DNA from: Minisyncoccota bacterium
GTDB lineage: Bacteria > Patescibacteriota > Minisyncoccia > Phycocordibacterales > JAACPR01
DNA: 64,000 bases
Reading direction: 5' to 3'
Assembly: GCA_041674225.1 (NCBI GenBank)
Contig: JBAYWG010000001.1
Coordinates: forward strand, 102,501-166,500
Shown here piece after piece: positions 14,539 through 64,000 of the stretch. The position numbers and the translations under genes were made by a program. The first letter of the stretch is position 1; every line of letters begins with the position of its first letter. Under the pieces are notes generated by a model. The model worked only from the letters and a program-made list of their open reading frames with translations. It made no database searches and was not told the origin of the DNA.

Positions 14539-16740
14539 ATGAATGAGAAATTTTTAAACCCGTACGATCCGGCTTCTACAGAGGCTCGAATCTATAAACT
14601 CTGGGAAGAATCAGGTCTTTTTAATCCTGAAAAATGTATTGTTGAAGGACACACATCTGACAGTGCTGAACCATTCACAATCATCCTTCCTCCTCCGAAC
14701 GTAACAGGAACTCTCCACCTTGGGCACGCCGATATGGTTGCAATTCAAGACACGATTATTCGATACAAAAGAATGAGTGGTTTCAGAACACTTTGGCTTC
14801 CAGGAACAGATCACGCTGCAATTGCAACTCAATCTAAAGTTGAGAAAATTTTGTCTAAAGACGGAATTCGAAAAAATGATTTAGGTCGTGAAGAATTTTT
14901 GAAACGCGTTGAAGATTTTGCACAAGAAAGTCACGACACAATTATTTCTCAATTGAAATCTATGGGAGCTTCTCTAGATTGGAGTCGTGAAGCATATACC
15001 CTTGATAAGATTCGCGAACGAGCAGTGCAAACAGCTTTCAAAAATATGTACGAAGACGGTTTGATTTATCGCGGAGAAAGAATTGTGAACTGGGATCCAA
15101 AAGGACAAACAACAATTTCTGATGATGAAATTGTTTATGAAGAAAGAGATGCGACTCTTTATACTTTTAAATATTCACCAGACTTCCCTATTTCAATTTC
15201 AACAACTCGTCCAGAAACAAAACTTGGTGACACTGCTGTAGCTGTGCACCCAGATGATGAACGATACAAAAAATACATAGGACAAACTTTTGATGTAAAT
15301 TTTATTGGTGTTGATCTAAAAATTAAAATCGTTTCAGATGAAAATGTTGAACCTGATTTTGGAACAGGAGCTCTTGGTGTAACTCCCGCACACAGTCATA
15401 TCGATTTTGATATCGCAAAGAAAAATTCTCTTCCTTTAATAAAAGTTATCAACGAATTTGCAAAAATTTCTGAAAATATTCCTGCACCTTTTACCGGCTT
15501 GAAAGTTTTGGATGCGCGAAATCTTGTTGTAGAAAAACTTCGTGAAGCTGGATTGATTGAAAAAGAAGAAACAACAAAACAAAATATTTCAACAGCCGAA
15601 AGAACTGGCGGAATTATTGAACCACTTCCAAAACTTCAATGGTGGATTGATGTAAACAAAGAGTTTGCAATAAAAAATTCACAGATCGACGGAATAAAAA
15701 CCGGAGATAAAGTAACTCTGAAGAAACTGATGCATCAAGTGGTTGAAAATAATCAAATTGAAATTTTGCCTGAAAGATTTTCAAAAACTTACTATAACTG
15801 GATCGATAACTTGCACGACTGGTGTATATCAAGACAAATTTGGTACGGACACAGAATTCCGGTTTGGTATAAAGGGACAGAAATTTTTGTGGGTGCTGAA
15901 GCTCCGTCTTCGGAATGGATTCAAGACGAAGATACACTCGACACATGGTTTTCATCTGGACTTTGGACTTTCTCAACTCTTGGATGGCCAGACGAAACTG
16001 AAGACATGAAAATTTATCATCCAACAAATGTTTTGGAAACTGGATACGATATTATTTTCTTCTGGGTTGCGAGAATGATTTTGATGAGTACATATCACCT
16101 AGGACAAATTCCTTTTAAAACAGTTTATCTTCATGGATTAGTGCGAGATGAAAAAGGTGTGAAGATGAGTAAATCTCTTGGTAATACTATTGATCCTGTT
16201 GAAGTGGCAAACGAATACGGAGCAGACGCTGTGCGAATGGCTCTACTTGTGGGAGTTGGACCTGGAGCTGACTCAAATCTTGGTGAAAACAAAATCAAAG
16301 CATACAAAAAGTTTTCAAATAAAATTTGGAACATTGCTAGATTTATTCAAGAAAATGTTGGTAACAGCTTATACAATCCAAATTACACACTTACAAATAT
16401 CGACAAAATTACTCTCGAAGAACTTACAGCCACAATCGCCGAAGTCACAGACGATATCGAAAATTACCGATTATATCTTGCAAGTGAAAAACTTTATCAT
16501 TTCACGTGGCATAAATTTGCAGATGAAATTTTGGAAGAAAGTAAAAATATTTTTAAAACTGATATTGAAGCAGAAATTGAATCTCGAAAACAACTTCTAA
16601 TGAGAATGTTTGATAATTTATTAAAAACGCTTCACCCATTTATTCCGTTTATAACTGAAGAAATTAATCAATCTTTGTCGTACAATAATGACAAGACTCT
16701 ATTAATGGTACAAAAGTGGCCATTGTTGTCTGATAAATAA
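14539..16740 (+). CDS. valS: Valine--tRNA ligase (compact form)
   Basis: PPPNVTGTLHLGHA (HIGH region, ValRS type) and KMSKSLGN. Confidence 0.85.
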   Translation: MNEKFLNPYDPASTEARIYKLWEESGLFNPEKCIVEGHTSDSAEPFTIILPPPNVTGTLHLGHADMVAIQDTIIRYKRMSGFRTLWLPGTDHAAIATQSKVEKILSKDGIRKNDLGREEFLKRVEDFAQESHDTIISQLKSMGASLDWSREAYTLDKIRERAVQTAFKNMYEDGLIYRGERIVNWDPKGQTTISDDEIVYEERDATLYTFKYSPDFPISISTTRPETKLGDTAVAVHPDDERYKKYIGQTFDVNFIGVDLKIKIVSDENVEPDFGTGALGVTPAHSHIDFDIAKKNSLPLIKVINEFAKISENIPAPFTGLKVLDARNLVVEKLREAGLIEKEETTKQNISTAERTGGIIEPLPKLQWWIDVNKEFAIKNSQIDGIKTGDKVTLKKLMHQVVENNQIEILPERFSKTYYNWIDNLHDWCISRQIWYGHRIPVWYKGTEIFVGAEAPSSEWIQDEDTLDTWFSSGLWTFSTLGWPDETEDMKIYHPTNVLETGYDIIFFWVARMILMSTYHLGQIPFKTVYLHGLVRDEKGVKMSKSLGNTIDPVEVANEYGADAVRMALLVGVGPGADSNLGENKIKAYKKFSNKIWNIARFIQENVGNSLYNPNYTLTNIDKITLEELTATIAEVTDDIENYRLYLASEKLYHFTWHKFADEILEESKNIFKTDIEAEIESRKQLLMRMFDNLLKTLHPFIPFITEEINQSLSYNNDKTLLMVQKWPLLSDK

Positions 16741-60569: not shown

Positions 60570-61775
60570 TTATAAAAAATCACCATAAGTATTTTTCACA
60601 TCTTGTGAATTTGCTGGATTATATTTTGGAAGATTTCTGTATTCTTCGATACCGTAATTTACAGCCTGAGCCTGTATTGCTTCTATATATTTATAGTAAT
60701 CCGCAGGTTGACCATCTATCAACAAATTTGGATTTGCAGCATTAAAACTGTCTACAGCTTTATCAATATCATTTGAATCCCCCAAATTATTCAAATGTTT
60801 TTTAACATCCCCTTCGTATTCAGGTCTACCAGAATACCTTTTTAGTGCTCTTTGCAGAGGATCCAAACCTTCAAATCTTTTATCTTTTGCCAAACTTTCA
60901 CTAGACATAAAAGAAGCAATCATTCTTCCCGCAGCATCAATATTTAAAAGGACATTCAATCTATCGTCTGCTTCCACCAGAGTCTTGCGATCATCTTTCT
61001 TTTCTATCATCAATTCCTCTAAACGTGCAGCATGATTTTGCAATTTACCACCTTCTTTACAACCTCTCACATCATTACAAATAAGAGTATGGCAATCTTC
61101 AAAAGTTTCTAGGGCAAATTCTTGAGCTACAACACCTTGCATATGACAAAGTCCAAATCCTCCGTCTTTAGCAGAGTTTGGCAACAGATCAATTCCTGTA
61201 CTTTCTTGCATAATCATCCCCAACAAAATTCCGCGAGGTATGTTGTATCTATCTTCAACGACCTCTGTAACATTCCTCCACAATAAAGTCATCGCGACTT
61301 TTCCATCAACACTTGAAGCCCCTCCTCTTGTGCTACCTCCAGGAATATTAAAGTTTTCAATTTTGGGAGGAGGAACAATTTCTTGATATCGCAATTCTGG
61401 TTTTATTCTTCTAAGTTCAGCAGAACTGATTTCTAATCTTTTTTCTTCTTTTTCTGTTTGTGGAGAACTTTCAACTTGCTCTAGTGCCTGTTCTTGCACT
61501 TTTTCTAATTTTTGTTCGTCAATGCTATCAAGTAAATTATCTATTCTCTTTTCTATATCATCTAATCTGCCAGATGCATCAGCAATTCCATTTTCTTTGT
61601 TATTTTTCAAATAAATACCTCCAAGACTAACACTGGATATAAAAGCTCCAGCTGCCCTCTCCAATAAATCTCTCCTAGAAATTGCTTTTTTATATTCTTT
61701 CTCTGCATCAGACACCTTGTCGGTCTCTTTTTTATTAAATCCCTCATAATTACTAGCTAGTTTCTCGAAATTCAC
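60570..61775 (-). CDS. Secreted protein with a lytic-transglycosylase (SLT/lysozyme-like) motif
   Basis: …MIMQESTGIDLLPNSAKDGGFGLCHMQG resembles the SLT catalytic E-S…GLMQ segment. N-terminal SRRDLL…AGAFISSV Tat-like or signal-anchor region. GC-elevated. Confidence 0.5.
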   Translation of the reverse strand: MNFEKLASNYEGFNKKETDKVSDAEKEYKKAISRRDLLERAAGAFISSVSLGGIYLKNNKENGIADASGRLDDIEKRIDNLLDSIDEQKLEKVQEQALEQVESSPQTEKEEKRLEISSAELRRIKPELRYQEIVPPPKIENFNIPGGSTRGGASSVDGKVAMTLLWRNVTEVVEDRYNIPRGILLGMIMQESTGIDLLPNSAKDGGFGLCHMQGVVAQEFALETFEDCHTLICNDVRGCKEGGKLQNHAARLEELMIEKKDDRKTLVEADDRLNVLLNIDAAGRMIASFMSSESLAKDKRFEGLDPLQRALKRYSGRPEYEGDVKKHLNNLGDSNDIDKAVDSFNAANPNLLIDGQPADYYKYIEAIQAQAVNYGIEEYRNLPKYNPANSQDVKNTYGDFL

Positions 61776-61888
61776 ATGTAAATTATAACAGATTTGATAT
61801 TTTGTTTATAAATTTTTTCACTAAATACCTCTGTATTGACATATTGTTAAATATGTTATATTTTCACTAAGAACCCTTCTTTAAAAAC

Positions 61889-63550
61889 ATGAAAAATCAA
61901 AGCACTCTTCCGGAAAAGCAGGAGTCTTTGACTCCTGCAAAAAGAACAAATCCAGCAGAAGAATTGTTTTTGCTGGACAAAACATCACCTTGGGATGAGA
62001 GAATCCTCTCGGACACAAATATTCAAAAAAGTGCATCCATCAGGCAACAGCTTGTTACTGCGCTCGAAAGAATTTACAGCCAAGTTCCCTTGCTAATGAA
62101 TATTGATCAGGCCATCAAAAATGGTTTTGTCAGCACATCGGATGCAGAGAATTTGTATCGCCTATTAAGTTTATTTCTTCAAGAGGAACACTGCAGTGAG
62201 AGATTCATTCTATATTTTCCCATGGAACTTATTCCACTAAATTTATTTAGTGAGTTCCGAGAAATCTATAAGCAAAAATGGTATCAACTGCTTTCGCACG
62301 AAGATTACAGAGCGAATTTCGTCGATGGAGATATCTCTGAAGAAGAAATTCAATCTGGAAAAATTCCAGAGGTTATCAAAGCAACTCATCTGATACCAAT
62401 ACTAATTCAAAAAGAAATTATTTCTTTAGCAGAAGTTTTGGAAATCAGAGGAGGAAGCGTTGGACTACTGAGAGATAACATTGACGAAGTCTTGAGAGCA
62501 ATTAATGGAAAGGAATTATCTAAACAAAGGAAGATTTCTTCTCAACAAATTTCCACTGCAAGAAAATCATGGGAGAAAAAAAGAGATACTCAAGAAAGGC
62601 TTCTGAAAAGTGCGAATAAAGTGGCGGAACTTCTAATTGCAAAAAGAATAACAATCGAAGAGGTAGTCAAAAAGAAAAATTACCACCTCGCAATTACGTC
62701 TGTCAGCATAGCTATTCAAAGACTTGCTCAAAATACCAGATCGAAAGCTTGTGCTCAGAGACTCTATTCAGTAATTAATCCAATCATGACTACCACGTGG
62801 TCTAGTGAGGACGATTTTACCAAAGAAATCATTGAAAGCGCGTGGTCACACATGTTGCATGTGGGGATCGGAGATCAGAAAGCAATTCAGTCTATCGGAG
62901 CACTAACAGATCGTCATGAAATTAAAACTTTCGAGGTGATTGTTGAAACAATCCGATTTGACGAAGAGTTGAAAGATTGGCTTATGCCGATCGTCATCTC
63001 TTACGGTTCTCGTGGAAAAGATTTTGGAACCATAAGTTCTGACTTCGATTTTGGAATCTTTGTTAAACCGAATGTTCCAATGATGCTCCGCTCTCAAATT
63101 CAAAAGCGTCTCAAGAAACTACTTGAGCCATTGGGTGTAAAGGGTAATGCACTTGAGTTTTGGTTGGAAGAAAATGATGATGGTCTTTTAATACAAGACT
63201 TCACAAACGCCGACAAAAAACTCGGTACGAGTAATTTTGTATCTACACTTTTCAATGGAGTGTGGATAGGTGAATTTGAAACCATTCAATTGATATATTC
63301 ACAGGTTTTGCAAAAATACCTGAAGTTGTCTGAAGATTCTGTACAACAATTTGTGGAACTTGAACGCTCAGTCTTGCAATACAGACTGATGCACAAAAAC
63401 TACCACTACTTTTATCCAAAGAGAGAAACTGAAGACTTGCCTAGAAACACAATAGACAAAAAAGGTGCCTTTTGGGACCCTGGATATCGTCGTATGGCTT
63501 CTGTTTTATTTTTGAGAAAAGTGTTTTTGCCTGAAATCGGCGAAAAATAA
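61889..63550 (+). CDS. Large hypothetical protein (553 aa) with a C-terminal minimal nucleotidyltransferase (Pol-beta/MNT-like) motif
   Basis: YGSRGKDFGTISSDFDFGIFV fits GS-x(9-13)-D-x-D of the NTase fold. An acidic LEENDDG follows ~50 aa later. No match recognised for the N-terminal ~370 aa. Confidence 0.5.
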   Translation: MKNQSTLPEKQESLTPAKRTNPAEELFLLDKTSPWDERILSDTNIQKSASIRQQLVTALERIYSQVPLLMNIDQAIKNGFVSTSDAENLYRLLSLFLQEEHCSERFILYFPMELIPLNLFSEFREIYKQKWYQLLSHEDYRANFVDGDISEEEIQSGKIPEVIKATHLIPILIQKEIISLAEVLEIRGGSVGLLRDNIDEVLRAINGKELSKQRKISSQQISTARKSWEKKRDTQERLLKSANKVAELLIAKRITIEEVVKKKNYHLAITSVSIAIQRLAQNTRSKACAQRLYSVINPIMTTTWSSEDDFTKEIIESAWSHMLHVGIGDQKAIQSIGALTDRHEIKTFEVIVETIRFDEELKDWLMPIVISYGSRGKDFGTISSDFDFGIFVKPNVPMMLRSQIQKRLKKLLEPLGVKGNALEFWLEENDDGLLIQDFTNADKKLGTSNFVSTLFNGVWIGEFETIQLIYSQVLQKYLKLSEDSVQQFVELERSVLQYRLMHKNYHYFYPKRETEDLPRNTIDKKGAFWDPGYRRMASVLFLRKVFLPEIGEK

Positions 63551-63557
63551 AAAAATA

Positions 63558-63594
63558 ACCCCGACCTCTCTTTCGAGAGGATCGGGGTTTTTTA
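63558..63594. terminator. Bidirectional terminator CCCCGACCTCTC-TTTC-GAGAGG(A)TCGGGG flanked by an A-run and a T-run, between convergent genes
   Basis: Long GC stem (one bulge) with AAAAAA upstream and TTTTTT downstream. Confidence 0.7.
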
Positions 63595-63599
63595 CTGCA

Positions 63600-64000
63600 T
63601 CATAGACGCTTTCTTCCAATACCAGCTCGGCCGGCGTCGTTGGAAAGTTTATCCCACGGAATCATTGCACCAAGTTGGTACATAGCCATAAGATAAGAGA
63701 TCTCCTCACTCCCAGACGGAAGATTGGGGAGCTCCATGATCGCAAGAGTGAACCGTGTCAAGTTCCTCTCAAGACGAACATAGTCGCTATTCACATCTGC
63801 TCCAAGCATCTTCAACATTTGCTCACGACTGGTGGCACCTATCGAAGCAGGCAAAGAGGGATTCTCAAGAATTCCCTTGACCCTGGTTGCGTCGTAAGCG
63901 AGAGCTCGAGCGATAGGAACACCCACACCTGAGAATACCTTGTTGATTTGATCGATGACAGACTCAGCGGCATCACGGACACCGGAAGTTTCCGGAGGAG
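63600..64000 (-). CDS. Partial gene (3' part; frame open to the window edge) encoding an unrecognised protein, strikingly GC-rich (~half GC by eye)
   Basis: The open frame continues beyond 63926 to nt 64000. The track's 'M' at 63926 is a GTG. Confidence 0.5.
   Translation of the reverse strand, partial: PPETSGVRDAAESVIDQINKVFSGVGVPIARALAYDATRVKGILENPSLPASIGATSREQMLKMLGADVNSDYVRLERNLTRFTLAIMELPNLPSGSEEISYLMAMYQLGAMIPWDKLSNDAGRAGIGRKRL

Follow-up and report, generated by a model that had tools for sequence, protein, structure and literature searches.

A predicted Pol-beta-type nucleotidyltransferase of Patescibacteria and its five-gene module, partly shared with mycobacteriophages

Gene A and the five-gene module

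The window analysed here, a stretch of 64,000 nt of contig JBAYWG010000001.1 from a Minisyncoccota bacterium, carries near its end a 553-aa open reading frame (ORF), gene A, at precisely the position called in a first-pass annotation made from the letters alone. Its product is identical to NCBI MFA7193456.1 (locus tag WC087_00880), a 'hypothetical protein' of a Candidatus Paceibacterota metagenome-assembled genome (MAG), and is predicted to be a nucleotidyltransferase (NTase) of the Pol-beta superfamily. The window ends 450 nt past gene A, inside gene B, the first gene of a convergent operon B-C-D-E, and genomic context was read from the source contig (locus L001) and from the contexts of five divergent homologues. 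Gene A converges on this same four-gene operon in all six contexts and the upstream flanks are entirely different, the operon proteins being of about 400 aa (B), 460 aa (C), 375 aa (D) and 275 aa (E). Three of the four genes linked to A (E, D and C) also co-occur in some mycobacteriophages, so that A marks an undescribed five-protein system; this context is more of a surprise than the NTase. Possibly the module is a system of a new kind.

Gene A is obligately linked to the B-C-D-E operon in the candidate phyla radiation (CPR, or Patescibacteria). Among 60 genome loci that were selected by A and had at least 5.5 kb of downstream sequence, C and D were found in 59, detectable E in 49 and detectable B in 37, with C on the strand opposite A in 58; reciprocally, A was present in all 38 D-selected metagenome loci with enough room. 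A co-directional arrangement, E-D-C-B-A, occurs on a 408-kb contig and in two metagenome loci. On the 408-kb contig (IMGVR_UViG_3300000976_000008; L091 3040-9566) the stops and starts of the five genes abut, forming a single operon; this contig, classified as viral, may represent a huge phage or a misclassified fragment of a CPR genome. The genes that flank the module are mostly of the housekeeping type, including those for tRNA synthetases, ATP synthase, YchF and 16S rRNA; in one genome (L007) a 16S rRNA gene, at 14960-16467, lies about 330 nt past gene E.

Some loci depart from the usual arrangement. Locus L017 (JAHFLU010000001.1, 8001-9764) is the sole A-selected locus with 8-kb flanks on both sides and no detectable C, D or E; its module may have been relocated, or the locus may be a true exception. 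Locus L059 (10026-16060) has the module partly duplicated (A, B, D, E, C, D, E), and L021, L026, L031, L038 and L072 each contain two D-like ORFs, perhaps through duplication or the splitting of a gene.

The gene A family is undescribed, as had been suspected from the sequence, because the names of its members in databases are all 'hypothetical', no family for A or B was found in Pfam, NCBIfam, PHROG or PADLOC and none for D in Pfam, NCBIfam or PADLOC, and our literature search found no paper on the five-gene module, the phage triad described below or the PurA-like paralogues. A word-indexed search returned 40 full-length homologues of gene A (26-42% identical), none with a name other than 'hypothetical', and 1.84 billion representatives, searched exhaustively with a profile, yielded 572 clusters at 50% identity (480 of the 572 at E <1e-30; all full-length), with no remote tail tying the family to a characterised one. 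Its distribution is essentially restricted to Patescibacteria: a scan of GTDB with one genome per species recovered A from 129 species, nearly all Patescibacteria, among them Paceibacteria, Saccharimonadia, Uhr-, Falkow-, Peri-, Davies-, Kaiser-, Ryan- and Yanofskybacteria and others.

Ten loci (L027, L028, L037, L039, L041, L075, L080, L082, L085 and L088) come from MAGs labelled 'uncultured Gammaproteobacteria', 'Bdellovibrionales' or 'Pseudomonadales'. Their module is of the same CPR type and sits in the same kind of small-gene context, and the labels look unreliable, with a real non-CPR occurrence possible.

Nucleotidyltransferase core and accessory regions of gene A

Sequence profiles and structure prediction together indicate that gene A is a genuine Pol-beta-superfamily NTase whose core is closest to enzymes of the MNT/MntA type (MNT, minimal nucleotidyltransferase). 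The catalytic signature reads Y-G373-S374-x10-D385-F-D387-F, and the residues that the first-pass annotation had taken for a clean Pol-beta signature are kept across a 177-sequence family alignment (25-40% overall identity), to which all conservation figures for gene A refer: G373, S374 and D385 are conserved at 100%, D387 at 99% and K377 at 98%. On its own, the bare pattern hG[GS]x9-13Dh[DE]h is moderately unusual; it is found in one of the 69 window ORFs of at least 100 aa and in 36 of 5,000 composition-preserving shuffles of the gene A protein (0.7%), and a few chance occurrences are expected per genome. The motif in gene A goes beyond chance because it is conserved in the 177 family members and because independent profiles match in the same register, and a fortuitous resemblance, the first of the two objections raised at the outset, thus fails.

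Since the window protein alone stays below curated hidden Markov model thresholds, assignment to the superfamily rests on the family ensemble. Pfam Polbeta (PF18765) is matched by 39 of 41 family members, with a best E-value of 4.2e-7, NTP_transf_2 (PF01909) by 26 of the 41, and MTPAP-like_central, a poly(A)-polymerase palm domain, weakly by 19. The window protein itself reaches 13.4 bits with NTP_transf_2, below the gathering threshold of 21, and gives a sub-threshold match to the MTPAP palm domain of Pfam over the same segment as the other NTase profiles. In a comparison with PDB profiles, the family profile matches HI0073 (1no5) at E 0.004, and MntA, GLD-2 and DrrA (E 0.91) fall on the same segment.

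The predicted structure agrees with the profiles. An AlphaFold2 (AF2) model built on the family alignment, with a mean predicted local distance difference test score (pLDDT) of 86 and a predicted template modelling score (pTM) of 0.87, presents in order a helix (342-357), strand beta1 (365-372), the GS loop, strand beta2 (387-392), a helix (398-415), strand beta3 (422-429), a strand at 432-435 and strand beta5 (458-461, with W459 and G461). This is the minimal NTase alpha/beta topology, so the second objection, that no Pol-beta-like fold would be predicted here, fails as well. Foldseek searches of the full-length model against PDB and BFVD gave no significant global match, and the only alpha/beta proteins among the hits were minimal NTases (MntA, 1wot and HI0073), CdnC and a Catovirus protein. 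MntA matched locally with a TM-score on the target of 0.5-0.55, and the Catovirus 'Pol beta NTase domain' protein with a probability of 0.84 and a root-mean-square deviation of 3.6 A over 94 columns. Matches to the helical-repeat proteins STAG1, condensin, PDCD4 and Rel were non-significant and were regarded as noise.

One element of the catalytic site had to be reassigned. The acidic cluster LEENDDG (aa 426-432), first put forward as the source of the third catalytic carboxylate, falls in the modelled turn between beta3 and beta4 and is variable in the family, with E428 conserved at 58% and no majority residue at positions 429-432. Conservation points instead to E423 (Glu in 81% of sequences, Asp in 2%, Gln in 8%; Glu or Asp together in 84%), which stands at the start of strand 422-429 in the triplet E-F-W425, next to a tryptophan conserved at 98%, and is the likely candidate for the third metal ligand.

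Around this core, gene A represents a new architecture within a known superfamily, with two conserved accessory regions that gave no significant match to a known fold (Table 1). Its succession of N-region, core and helical tail is, as had been supposed, unlike that of MNT antitoxins, cGAS/DncV-like nucleotidyltransferases (CD-NTases), GlnE/GlnD and CCA-adding enzymes, and no GlnE, GlnD or CCA-enzyme family domain was found in it. The N-terminal region of about 340-370 aa, previously described as unrecognisable, has no match in Pfam, NCBIfam, PHROG, PADLOC or the PDB sequences and no significant Foldseek match. Its all-helical domain contains residues conserved at 90-100%, specifically R105, Y109-x-P111, W131 and the two motifs listed in Table 1. 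The first of these motifs overlaps the sole internal low-confidence stretch among the invariant residues (aa 144-155, pLDDT <50), and this acidic RANFVDGD...E loop is probably flexible in the modelled protein. The helical insert that follows opens with a conserved R225...W228, is missing from family members of about 500 aa (gaps in P0027, P0031 and P0033) and is enlarged in those of about 800 aa; no additional Pfam domain was found in the extra-long members.

The C-terminal tail carries the motifs L496-Q-Y-R499-L-x-H502-x-G-Y505, F528-W-D530-x-G-Y-R534-x-x-A537 and F546-L-P548, in which R499, R534, F528 and A537 are conserved at 100%, D530 at 99% and H502 at 98%. It has no sequence or structural relatives in Pfam, NCBIfam, PHROGs, PDB or Foldseek searches and presumably lines the acceptor/NTP (nucleoside triphosphate) site. 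The pTM of the model implies that the parts of gene A pack as one body, and the accessory regions would therefore probably shape the acceptor site. Two relationships were tried for these regions and rejected: the N-domain is not related to B or D (hhalign probability <1%), and a HEPN-like reading of the tail (Y-R499-L-M-H502) is contradicted by its spacing, Rx2H rather than Rx4-6H, with only two long helices in the model and no HEPN matches.

Table 1. Features of gene A, its protein regions and its immediate surroundings (window coordinates)
Feature	Position	Strand	Basis
Promoter-like site, TTGACA-17 nt-TATTTT	61836..61864	+	Consensus scan, 10/12 matches; 25 nt upstream of gene A start
Gene A, predicted 553-aa multidomain nucleotidyltransferase	61889..63550	+	ORF with ATG start; exact database match
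Conserved all-helical N-terminal domain, aa ~18-205	61940..62503	+	177-sequence conservation; AF2 helices
N-domain motif R141-A-N-F-V-D146-G147-D148-x-x-E151	62309..62341	+	90-100% conserved, 177 sequences
N-domain motif K164-A-x-H167-L-x-P170	62378..62398	+	90-100% conserved, 177 sequences
Variable helical insert, aa ~206-340	62504..62908	+	Alignment gaps; AF2 helices 223-335
Predicted minimal Pol-beta-type NTase core, aa ~342-472	62912..63304	+	AF2 topology, Pfam, PDB profiles, Foldseek
Catalytic signature YGSRGKDFGTISSDFDFGIFV, hG[GS]x9-13Dh[DE]h, aa 372-392	63002..63064	+	Translation
E423-F424-W425 on beta3, candidate third metal-binding carboxylate	63155..63163	+	Translation, conservation
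Conserved C-terminal helical extension, aa 473-553	63305..63547	+	Conservation; helices 484-501, 504-508, 531-544
Bidirectional intrinsic terminator: A-run, CCCCGACCTCTC, loop, GAGAGGATCGGGG, T-run	63559..63595	.	Terminator scan and sequence
Gene B, 3' part	63600..64000	-	ORF fragment; full gene L001 11712-13091; MFA7193457.1, annotated 459 aa

Partner proteins and their phage relatives

The partners of A range from a protein with no recognisable relatives to members of well-known folds. B is all-alpha in its AF2 model (pLDDT 84; residues 1-77 of low confidence), with no Foldseek match in PDB and no recurrent Pfam signal; against PDB profiles it gave only a marginal Rad51-N/helix-hairpin-helix (HhH)-like match (E 0.25). 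It has no invariant Arg or His, and no HEPN-like Rx4-6H motif, HEPN Pfam match or HEPN structural match was found. In the family alignment M57 is a near-invariant start, and the annotated GTG start is probably about 56 codons too far upstream.

C matches Pfam Adenylsucc_synt (PF00709) at E 2e-34 to 2e-41, but scores far under the equivalog cut-offs, with 81-111 bits against 396-402 for PurA (TIGR00184/NF002223) and 14-17 bits against 300 for PurZ. Kept from PurA and PurZ, and invariant or nearly so, are the P-loop GxGDGGKGG, equivalents of the catalytic Asp and His (H94 corresponding to the PurA catalytic acid His) and the purine-specificity Asp (D411), and basic residues K378/R380 occupy the aspartate-binding RxR position. 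Several substrate-contact positions appear to differ from those of E. coli PurA, H298 standing for Q224 and W409 for K331. From its sequence, C looks like an active, divergent PurA-like, GTP-dependent amidoligase that is an orthologue of neither PurA nor PurZ. The start of gene C (L001 13088-14734) is ambiguous, the longest ORF having 548 aa, the ENA/Logan version 512 aa and the NCBI version 463 aa; both longer versions overlap D at its 3' end, and the consensus of the family sets in close to the 463-aa start.

In D, residues D80, T81, T82, S84, M85 and D192 are invariant (D192 in 40 of 40 members) and T174 is present in 37 of 40, forming a motif DTTGSM...T...D whose order and context are those of the metal-ion-dependent adhesion site (MIDAS) of von Willebrand factor A (vWA) domains. 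No PDB profile match and no recurrent Pfam signal were found for D, VWA_4 appearing in one of 40 members at E 0.25. The NCBI model of this gene (L001 14565-15707; MFA7193459.1) has 295 aa against 380 aa for the ORF and begins at or after M85, losing the invariant DTTGSM (D80-M85); its start is probably mis-called. The profile of E matches CK2alpha at E 1.7e-6, in the N-lobe as well as in the catalytic-loop/DWG region, and a PHROG 'kinase' family at 1e-8. Its beta3 Lys position is Q in 25 of 40 members and its HRD position has no Asp; the catalytic-loop Asn163 is kept in 39 of 40 and the DFG-type Asp177 in 33 of 40. E thus appears by sequence to have a protein-kinase fold and to be a pseudokinase or an atypical transferase.

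PHROG profiles link C, D and E to phage families. A tblastn search with C matched 217 phage records, 201 of them from Mycobacterium phages; among the matches listed, C-like phage proteins at 31-33% identity are named 'PurA-like adenylosuccinate synthetase' or, in RefSeq copies, '2-aminooxy adenylosuccinate synthetase'. In phage LRRHood (GQ303262.1; Bixzunavirus Bxz1, cluster C1; L090 6553-10326), four consecutive products comprise gp253, a 'Ser/Thr kinase' with an N-terminal J-domain and the HRD Asp replaced ('HGAITPDN'), the hypothetical gp254, the 88-aa gp255 and the PurA-like gp256. E aligns with gp253 (hhalign 98.6%, E 5e-16), D with gp254 (98.8%, E 1e-16) and C with gp256 (about 31-33% identity over the full length), so that homologues of E, D and C lie in the phage in the same order as in the CPR module. 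By contrast with that module, A and B are without homologues in the phages, whose kinase-like protein carries the J-domain; the triad genes are themselves uncharacterised. A tblastn search of 50,697 phage genomes with A and D gave no match, and only the PHROG profiles and C brought the phage link to light. A smaller viral contig carries an overlapping D-like/PurA-like pair alone. D-C is the minimal conserved pair; Bixzunaviruses and CPR add E to it, and A and B are confined to the CPR-type module. Three long-annotated, unstudied genes of Bxz1-like mycobacteriophages (a 'kinase', a hypothetical protein and a 'PurA-like' enzyme) thus emerge as a conserved functional unit, and these phages, being experimentally tractable, could reveal the core function.

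Possible roles of the module and flanking features

Several characterised NTases offer a framework for interpreting gene A. MNT-type proteins (MNT, MntA and HI0073) provide the best sequence and structure matches to its core, share its alpha/beta topology and the pattern FGSxxKGxxxxxSDhDhhh (vilfGSrlKGYgtknaDlDvavfv aligned to HI0073 VWAFGSRVKGKAKKYSDLDLAII) and, like gene A, probably catalyse the Mg-dependent transfer of a nucleoside monophosphate (NMP) to a hydroxyl acceptor. MNTs are, however, stand-alone proteins of about 100-140 aa encoded beside a HEPN RNase, whereas the gene A core sits inside a 553-aa protein with a novel helical N-region of about 340 aa and a conserved C-tail, in a five-gene module whose neighbour B is not HEPN-like. 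An identity as the MntA antitoxin of a type VII toxin-antitoxin system was rejected on the length of the protein, its score of 16.5 bits against 60 and the lack of a HEPN partner.

GlnE and DrrA/SidM supply an analogy of working principle, a Pol-beta NTase with flanking helical domains that modifies a partner by tyrosine nucleotidylylation. GlnE, which adenylylates glutamine synthetase, is the best-known NTase controlling an amidoligase, and C is a predicted amidoligase here. Gene A shares no homology with GlnE or DrrA beyond the generic core, the DrrA profile match being marginal, and no GlnE or GlnD_UR_UTase match from Pfam or NCBIfam was found in the 41 members, so that A as GlnE or GlnD was rejected. 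Kanamycin and other aminoglycoside NTases are similar in layout, with an MNT-like core and a helical C-terminal extension, but gene A is much larger, has no matches to aminoglycoside-NTase (ANT) families and lies in another context, with no resistance-gene setting. CdnC (6u7b/6p80), a CD-NTase, matches the core locally (Foldseek probability 0.75 over 114 columns), and both proteins belong to multi-gene systems. Unlike the CD-NTases of cyclic-oligonucleotide-based antiphage signalling systems, A comes with no cGAS/OAS-like C-lobe, PADLOC match, effector, Cap2/Cap3 or HORMA/TRIP13 genes; its identification as a CD-NTase was rejected for want of a bilobed fold, a PADLOC match and an effector domain in B, C, D or E. 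The candidacy of A as a CCA-adding enzyme or bacterial poly(A) polymerase was likewise rejected, with no PolyA_pol (PF01743) match and only a generic similarity to the MTPAP/GLD-2 palm.

We propose that A would act as a Mg2+-dependent, catalytically competent NTase and the fifth component of the conserved module. It would bind NTP-Mg2+ through G373-S374, K377, D385, D387 and probably E423, and would transfer an NMP (AMP being the likeliest) to the hydroxyl group of an acceptor that the N-domain and the C-tail hold in place. This acceptor would be a partner protein of the module, in a regulatory nucleotidylylation analogous to that of HepT by MntA and of glutamine synthetase by GlnE, with the PurA-like ligase C or the CPR-specific, co-acquired B ranking highest as targets; the MIDAS-like site of D might accept the acidic loop FVDGDxxE of A, flexible and invariant, as its ligand. 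We favour regulatory nucleotidylylation of a module partner, tentatively and by analogy, because the core is nearest to MntA, because GlnE controls an amidoligase and because A is an add-on to a phage-type core. The MntA-type PDB titles matched include 'mono-AMPylated HEPN toxin in complex with MNT antitoxin', such enzymes oligo-AMPylating a partner protein. Of the two activities suggested in the first-pass annotation, AMPylator and second-messenger synthase, AMPylation-like protein modification would be our preferred guess for A because its core is closest to MNT-type enzymes. Synthesis of a messenger in the manner of CD-NTases is less likely, because A lacks a cGAS-like C-domain and a PADLOC match and the module lacks an effector gene.

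A number of observations weigh against nucleotidylylation of a partner or against the assignments on which it builds. The gene A protein reaches only 14.3 bits with Pfam Polbeta (gathering score 26.9) and 16.5 bits with its best NCBIfam match, the MntA model NF047752 (cut-off 60), all Foldseek E-values against PDB and BFVD exceed 0.2, and the candidate metal ligand E423 is Q in 8% of family members. B goes undetected in about a third of the A-selected loci, and the vWA-like, MIDAS assignment of D holds at the level of the motif only. The phage triad occurs without A or B, so that A is not required for the core chemistry. MNT-like cores are found in small-molecule NTases such as kanamycin NTase (KNTase) as well, and the similarity to poly(A)-polymerase palms (19/41) fits an RNA acceptor equally well.

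Other explanations were weighed. The full PurA catalytic set retained by C would suit a pathway of biosynthesis or salvage in which C makes an N6-substituted (adenylosuccinate-like) purine nucleotide, A activates or conjugates it by NMP transfer, and D, E and B serve as scaffold or regulators. CPR bacteria depend on nucleotide salvage, and KNTase-type enzymes, which combine a minimal NTase with a helical C-domain, act on small molecules; the module, moreover, lies among housekeeping genes, not in mobile islands, and is well conserved (mean column identity 60% for C, 46% for D and 43% for E). We nevertheless judge a small-molecule pathway unlikely, as pseudokinase-like and MIDAS-type proteins are unusual in plain metabolic pathways, no Rfam riboswitch or non-coding RNA (ncRNA) was found beside the module in eight loci, and phages carry D-C(-E) without A. 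The weak palm matches (MTPAP-like_central and GLD-2) would alternatively point to an NTase acting on RNA 3' ends, in tailing, repair or tRNA modification, with the helical N- and C-regions binding RNA through their invariant basic and aromatic residues (R105, Y109, W131, R141, K164, H167, R225, W228, R499 and R534). The marginal HhH/SAM-like signal at the N terminus of B is in keeping with such a role, and PurA-type chemistry, in which an oxo group is phosphorylated and then attacked by an amine, resembles by analogy that of tRNA base-modifying ligases. An RNA substrate seems improbable all the same, given that similarity to such palms is a general trait of the superfamily, that no match to CCA-adding, PcnB (PolyA_pol) or RNA-binding domains was found and that no tRNA or ncRNA gene is conserved beside the module.

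Conflict systems typically bring together several components of the sorts seen here (NTase, kinase-fold protein, MIDAS-like protein, NTPase), and the five genes could form an anti-phage or other conflict system in which A is a CD-NTase-like signal synthase or an MNT-like antitoxin or regulator, the phage triad being a counter-measure or the evolutionary source. The homologues of E, D and C in Bixzunaviruses and on viral contigs, the apparently patchy distribution within CPR (129 species) and the local CdnC match are consistent with a defensive role. Conversely, no convincing PADLOC match for any of the five proteins and no recognisable effector (nuclease, pore or NADase) were found, the flanks are of housekeeping type and not conserved, the sequences are highly conserved by the standards of conflict systems, A is without a cGAS-like C-domain, and B is without a HEPN-like Rx4-6H motif or structural match; a conflict system is, in our view, distinctly improbable. 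That the motif is fortuitous, or the domain catalytically dead in a structural protein, might be argued from the position of the window protein under every curated threshold and from the recurrence of the bare motif in 0.7% of shuffles. This explanation is effectively refuted by the conservation of GS and the first Asp at 100% in 177 sequences, to which the NTase model matches in 39 of 41 members and the predicted NTase fold may be added, and it retains a negligible share of our belief.

A broader scheme, speculative and rather doubtful, is one in which A is the nucleotidyl-transferring subunit of a five-protein CPR machine built around an ancient, phage-shared core (PurA-like amidoligase, MIDAS-type adaptor and pseudokinase), which would make an N6-substituted purine nucleotide and attach this or AMP to a protein or RNA. 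If true, this would represent a new type of nucleotide-based modification or regulation in organisms unable to make their own purines. The module probably concerns the handling of purine nucleotides, on which these symbionts depend. CPR bacteria account for much of bacterial diversity and have tiny genomes full of unannotated genes. At about 7 kb, the five-gene module occupies about 1% of such a genome and is conserved across several CPR classes, and it offers a testable entry into CPR-specific biochemistry, at least two of its enzymes (the NTase and the PurA-like ligase) having their catalytic motifs intact.

The surroundings of gene A in the window add a few minor features. The promoter-like site before gene A is no more than suggestive, such sites being no more numerous in the region than in shuffles. 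Upstream, the divergent neighbour (60570-61775, minus strand; 401 aa) has no Pfam or NCBIfam match and shows by eye a soluble lytic transglycosylase (SLT)-like 'QESTG...GLCHMQ' motif; it is not kept beside the module in other genomes. Downstream, the terminator is common to the convergent genes A and B and falls within the 49-nt gap between them. Finally, GC content is 40.4% at window positions 62001-64000, where the module genes lie, against 31-38% across the remainder of the 64-kb window.

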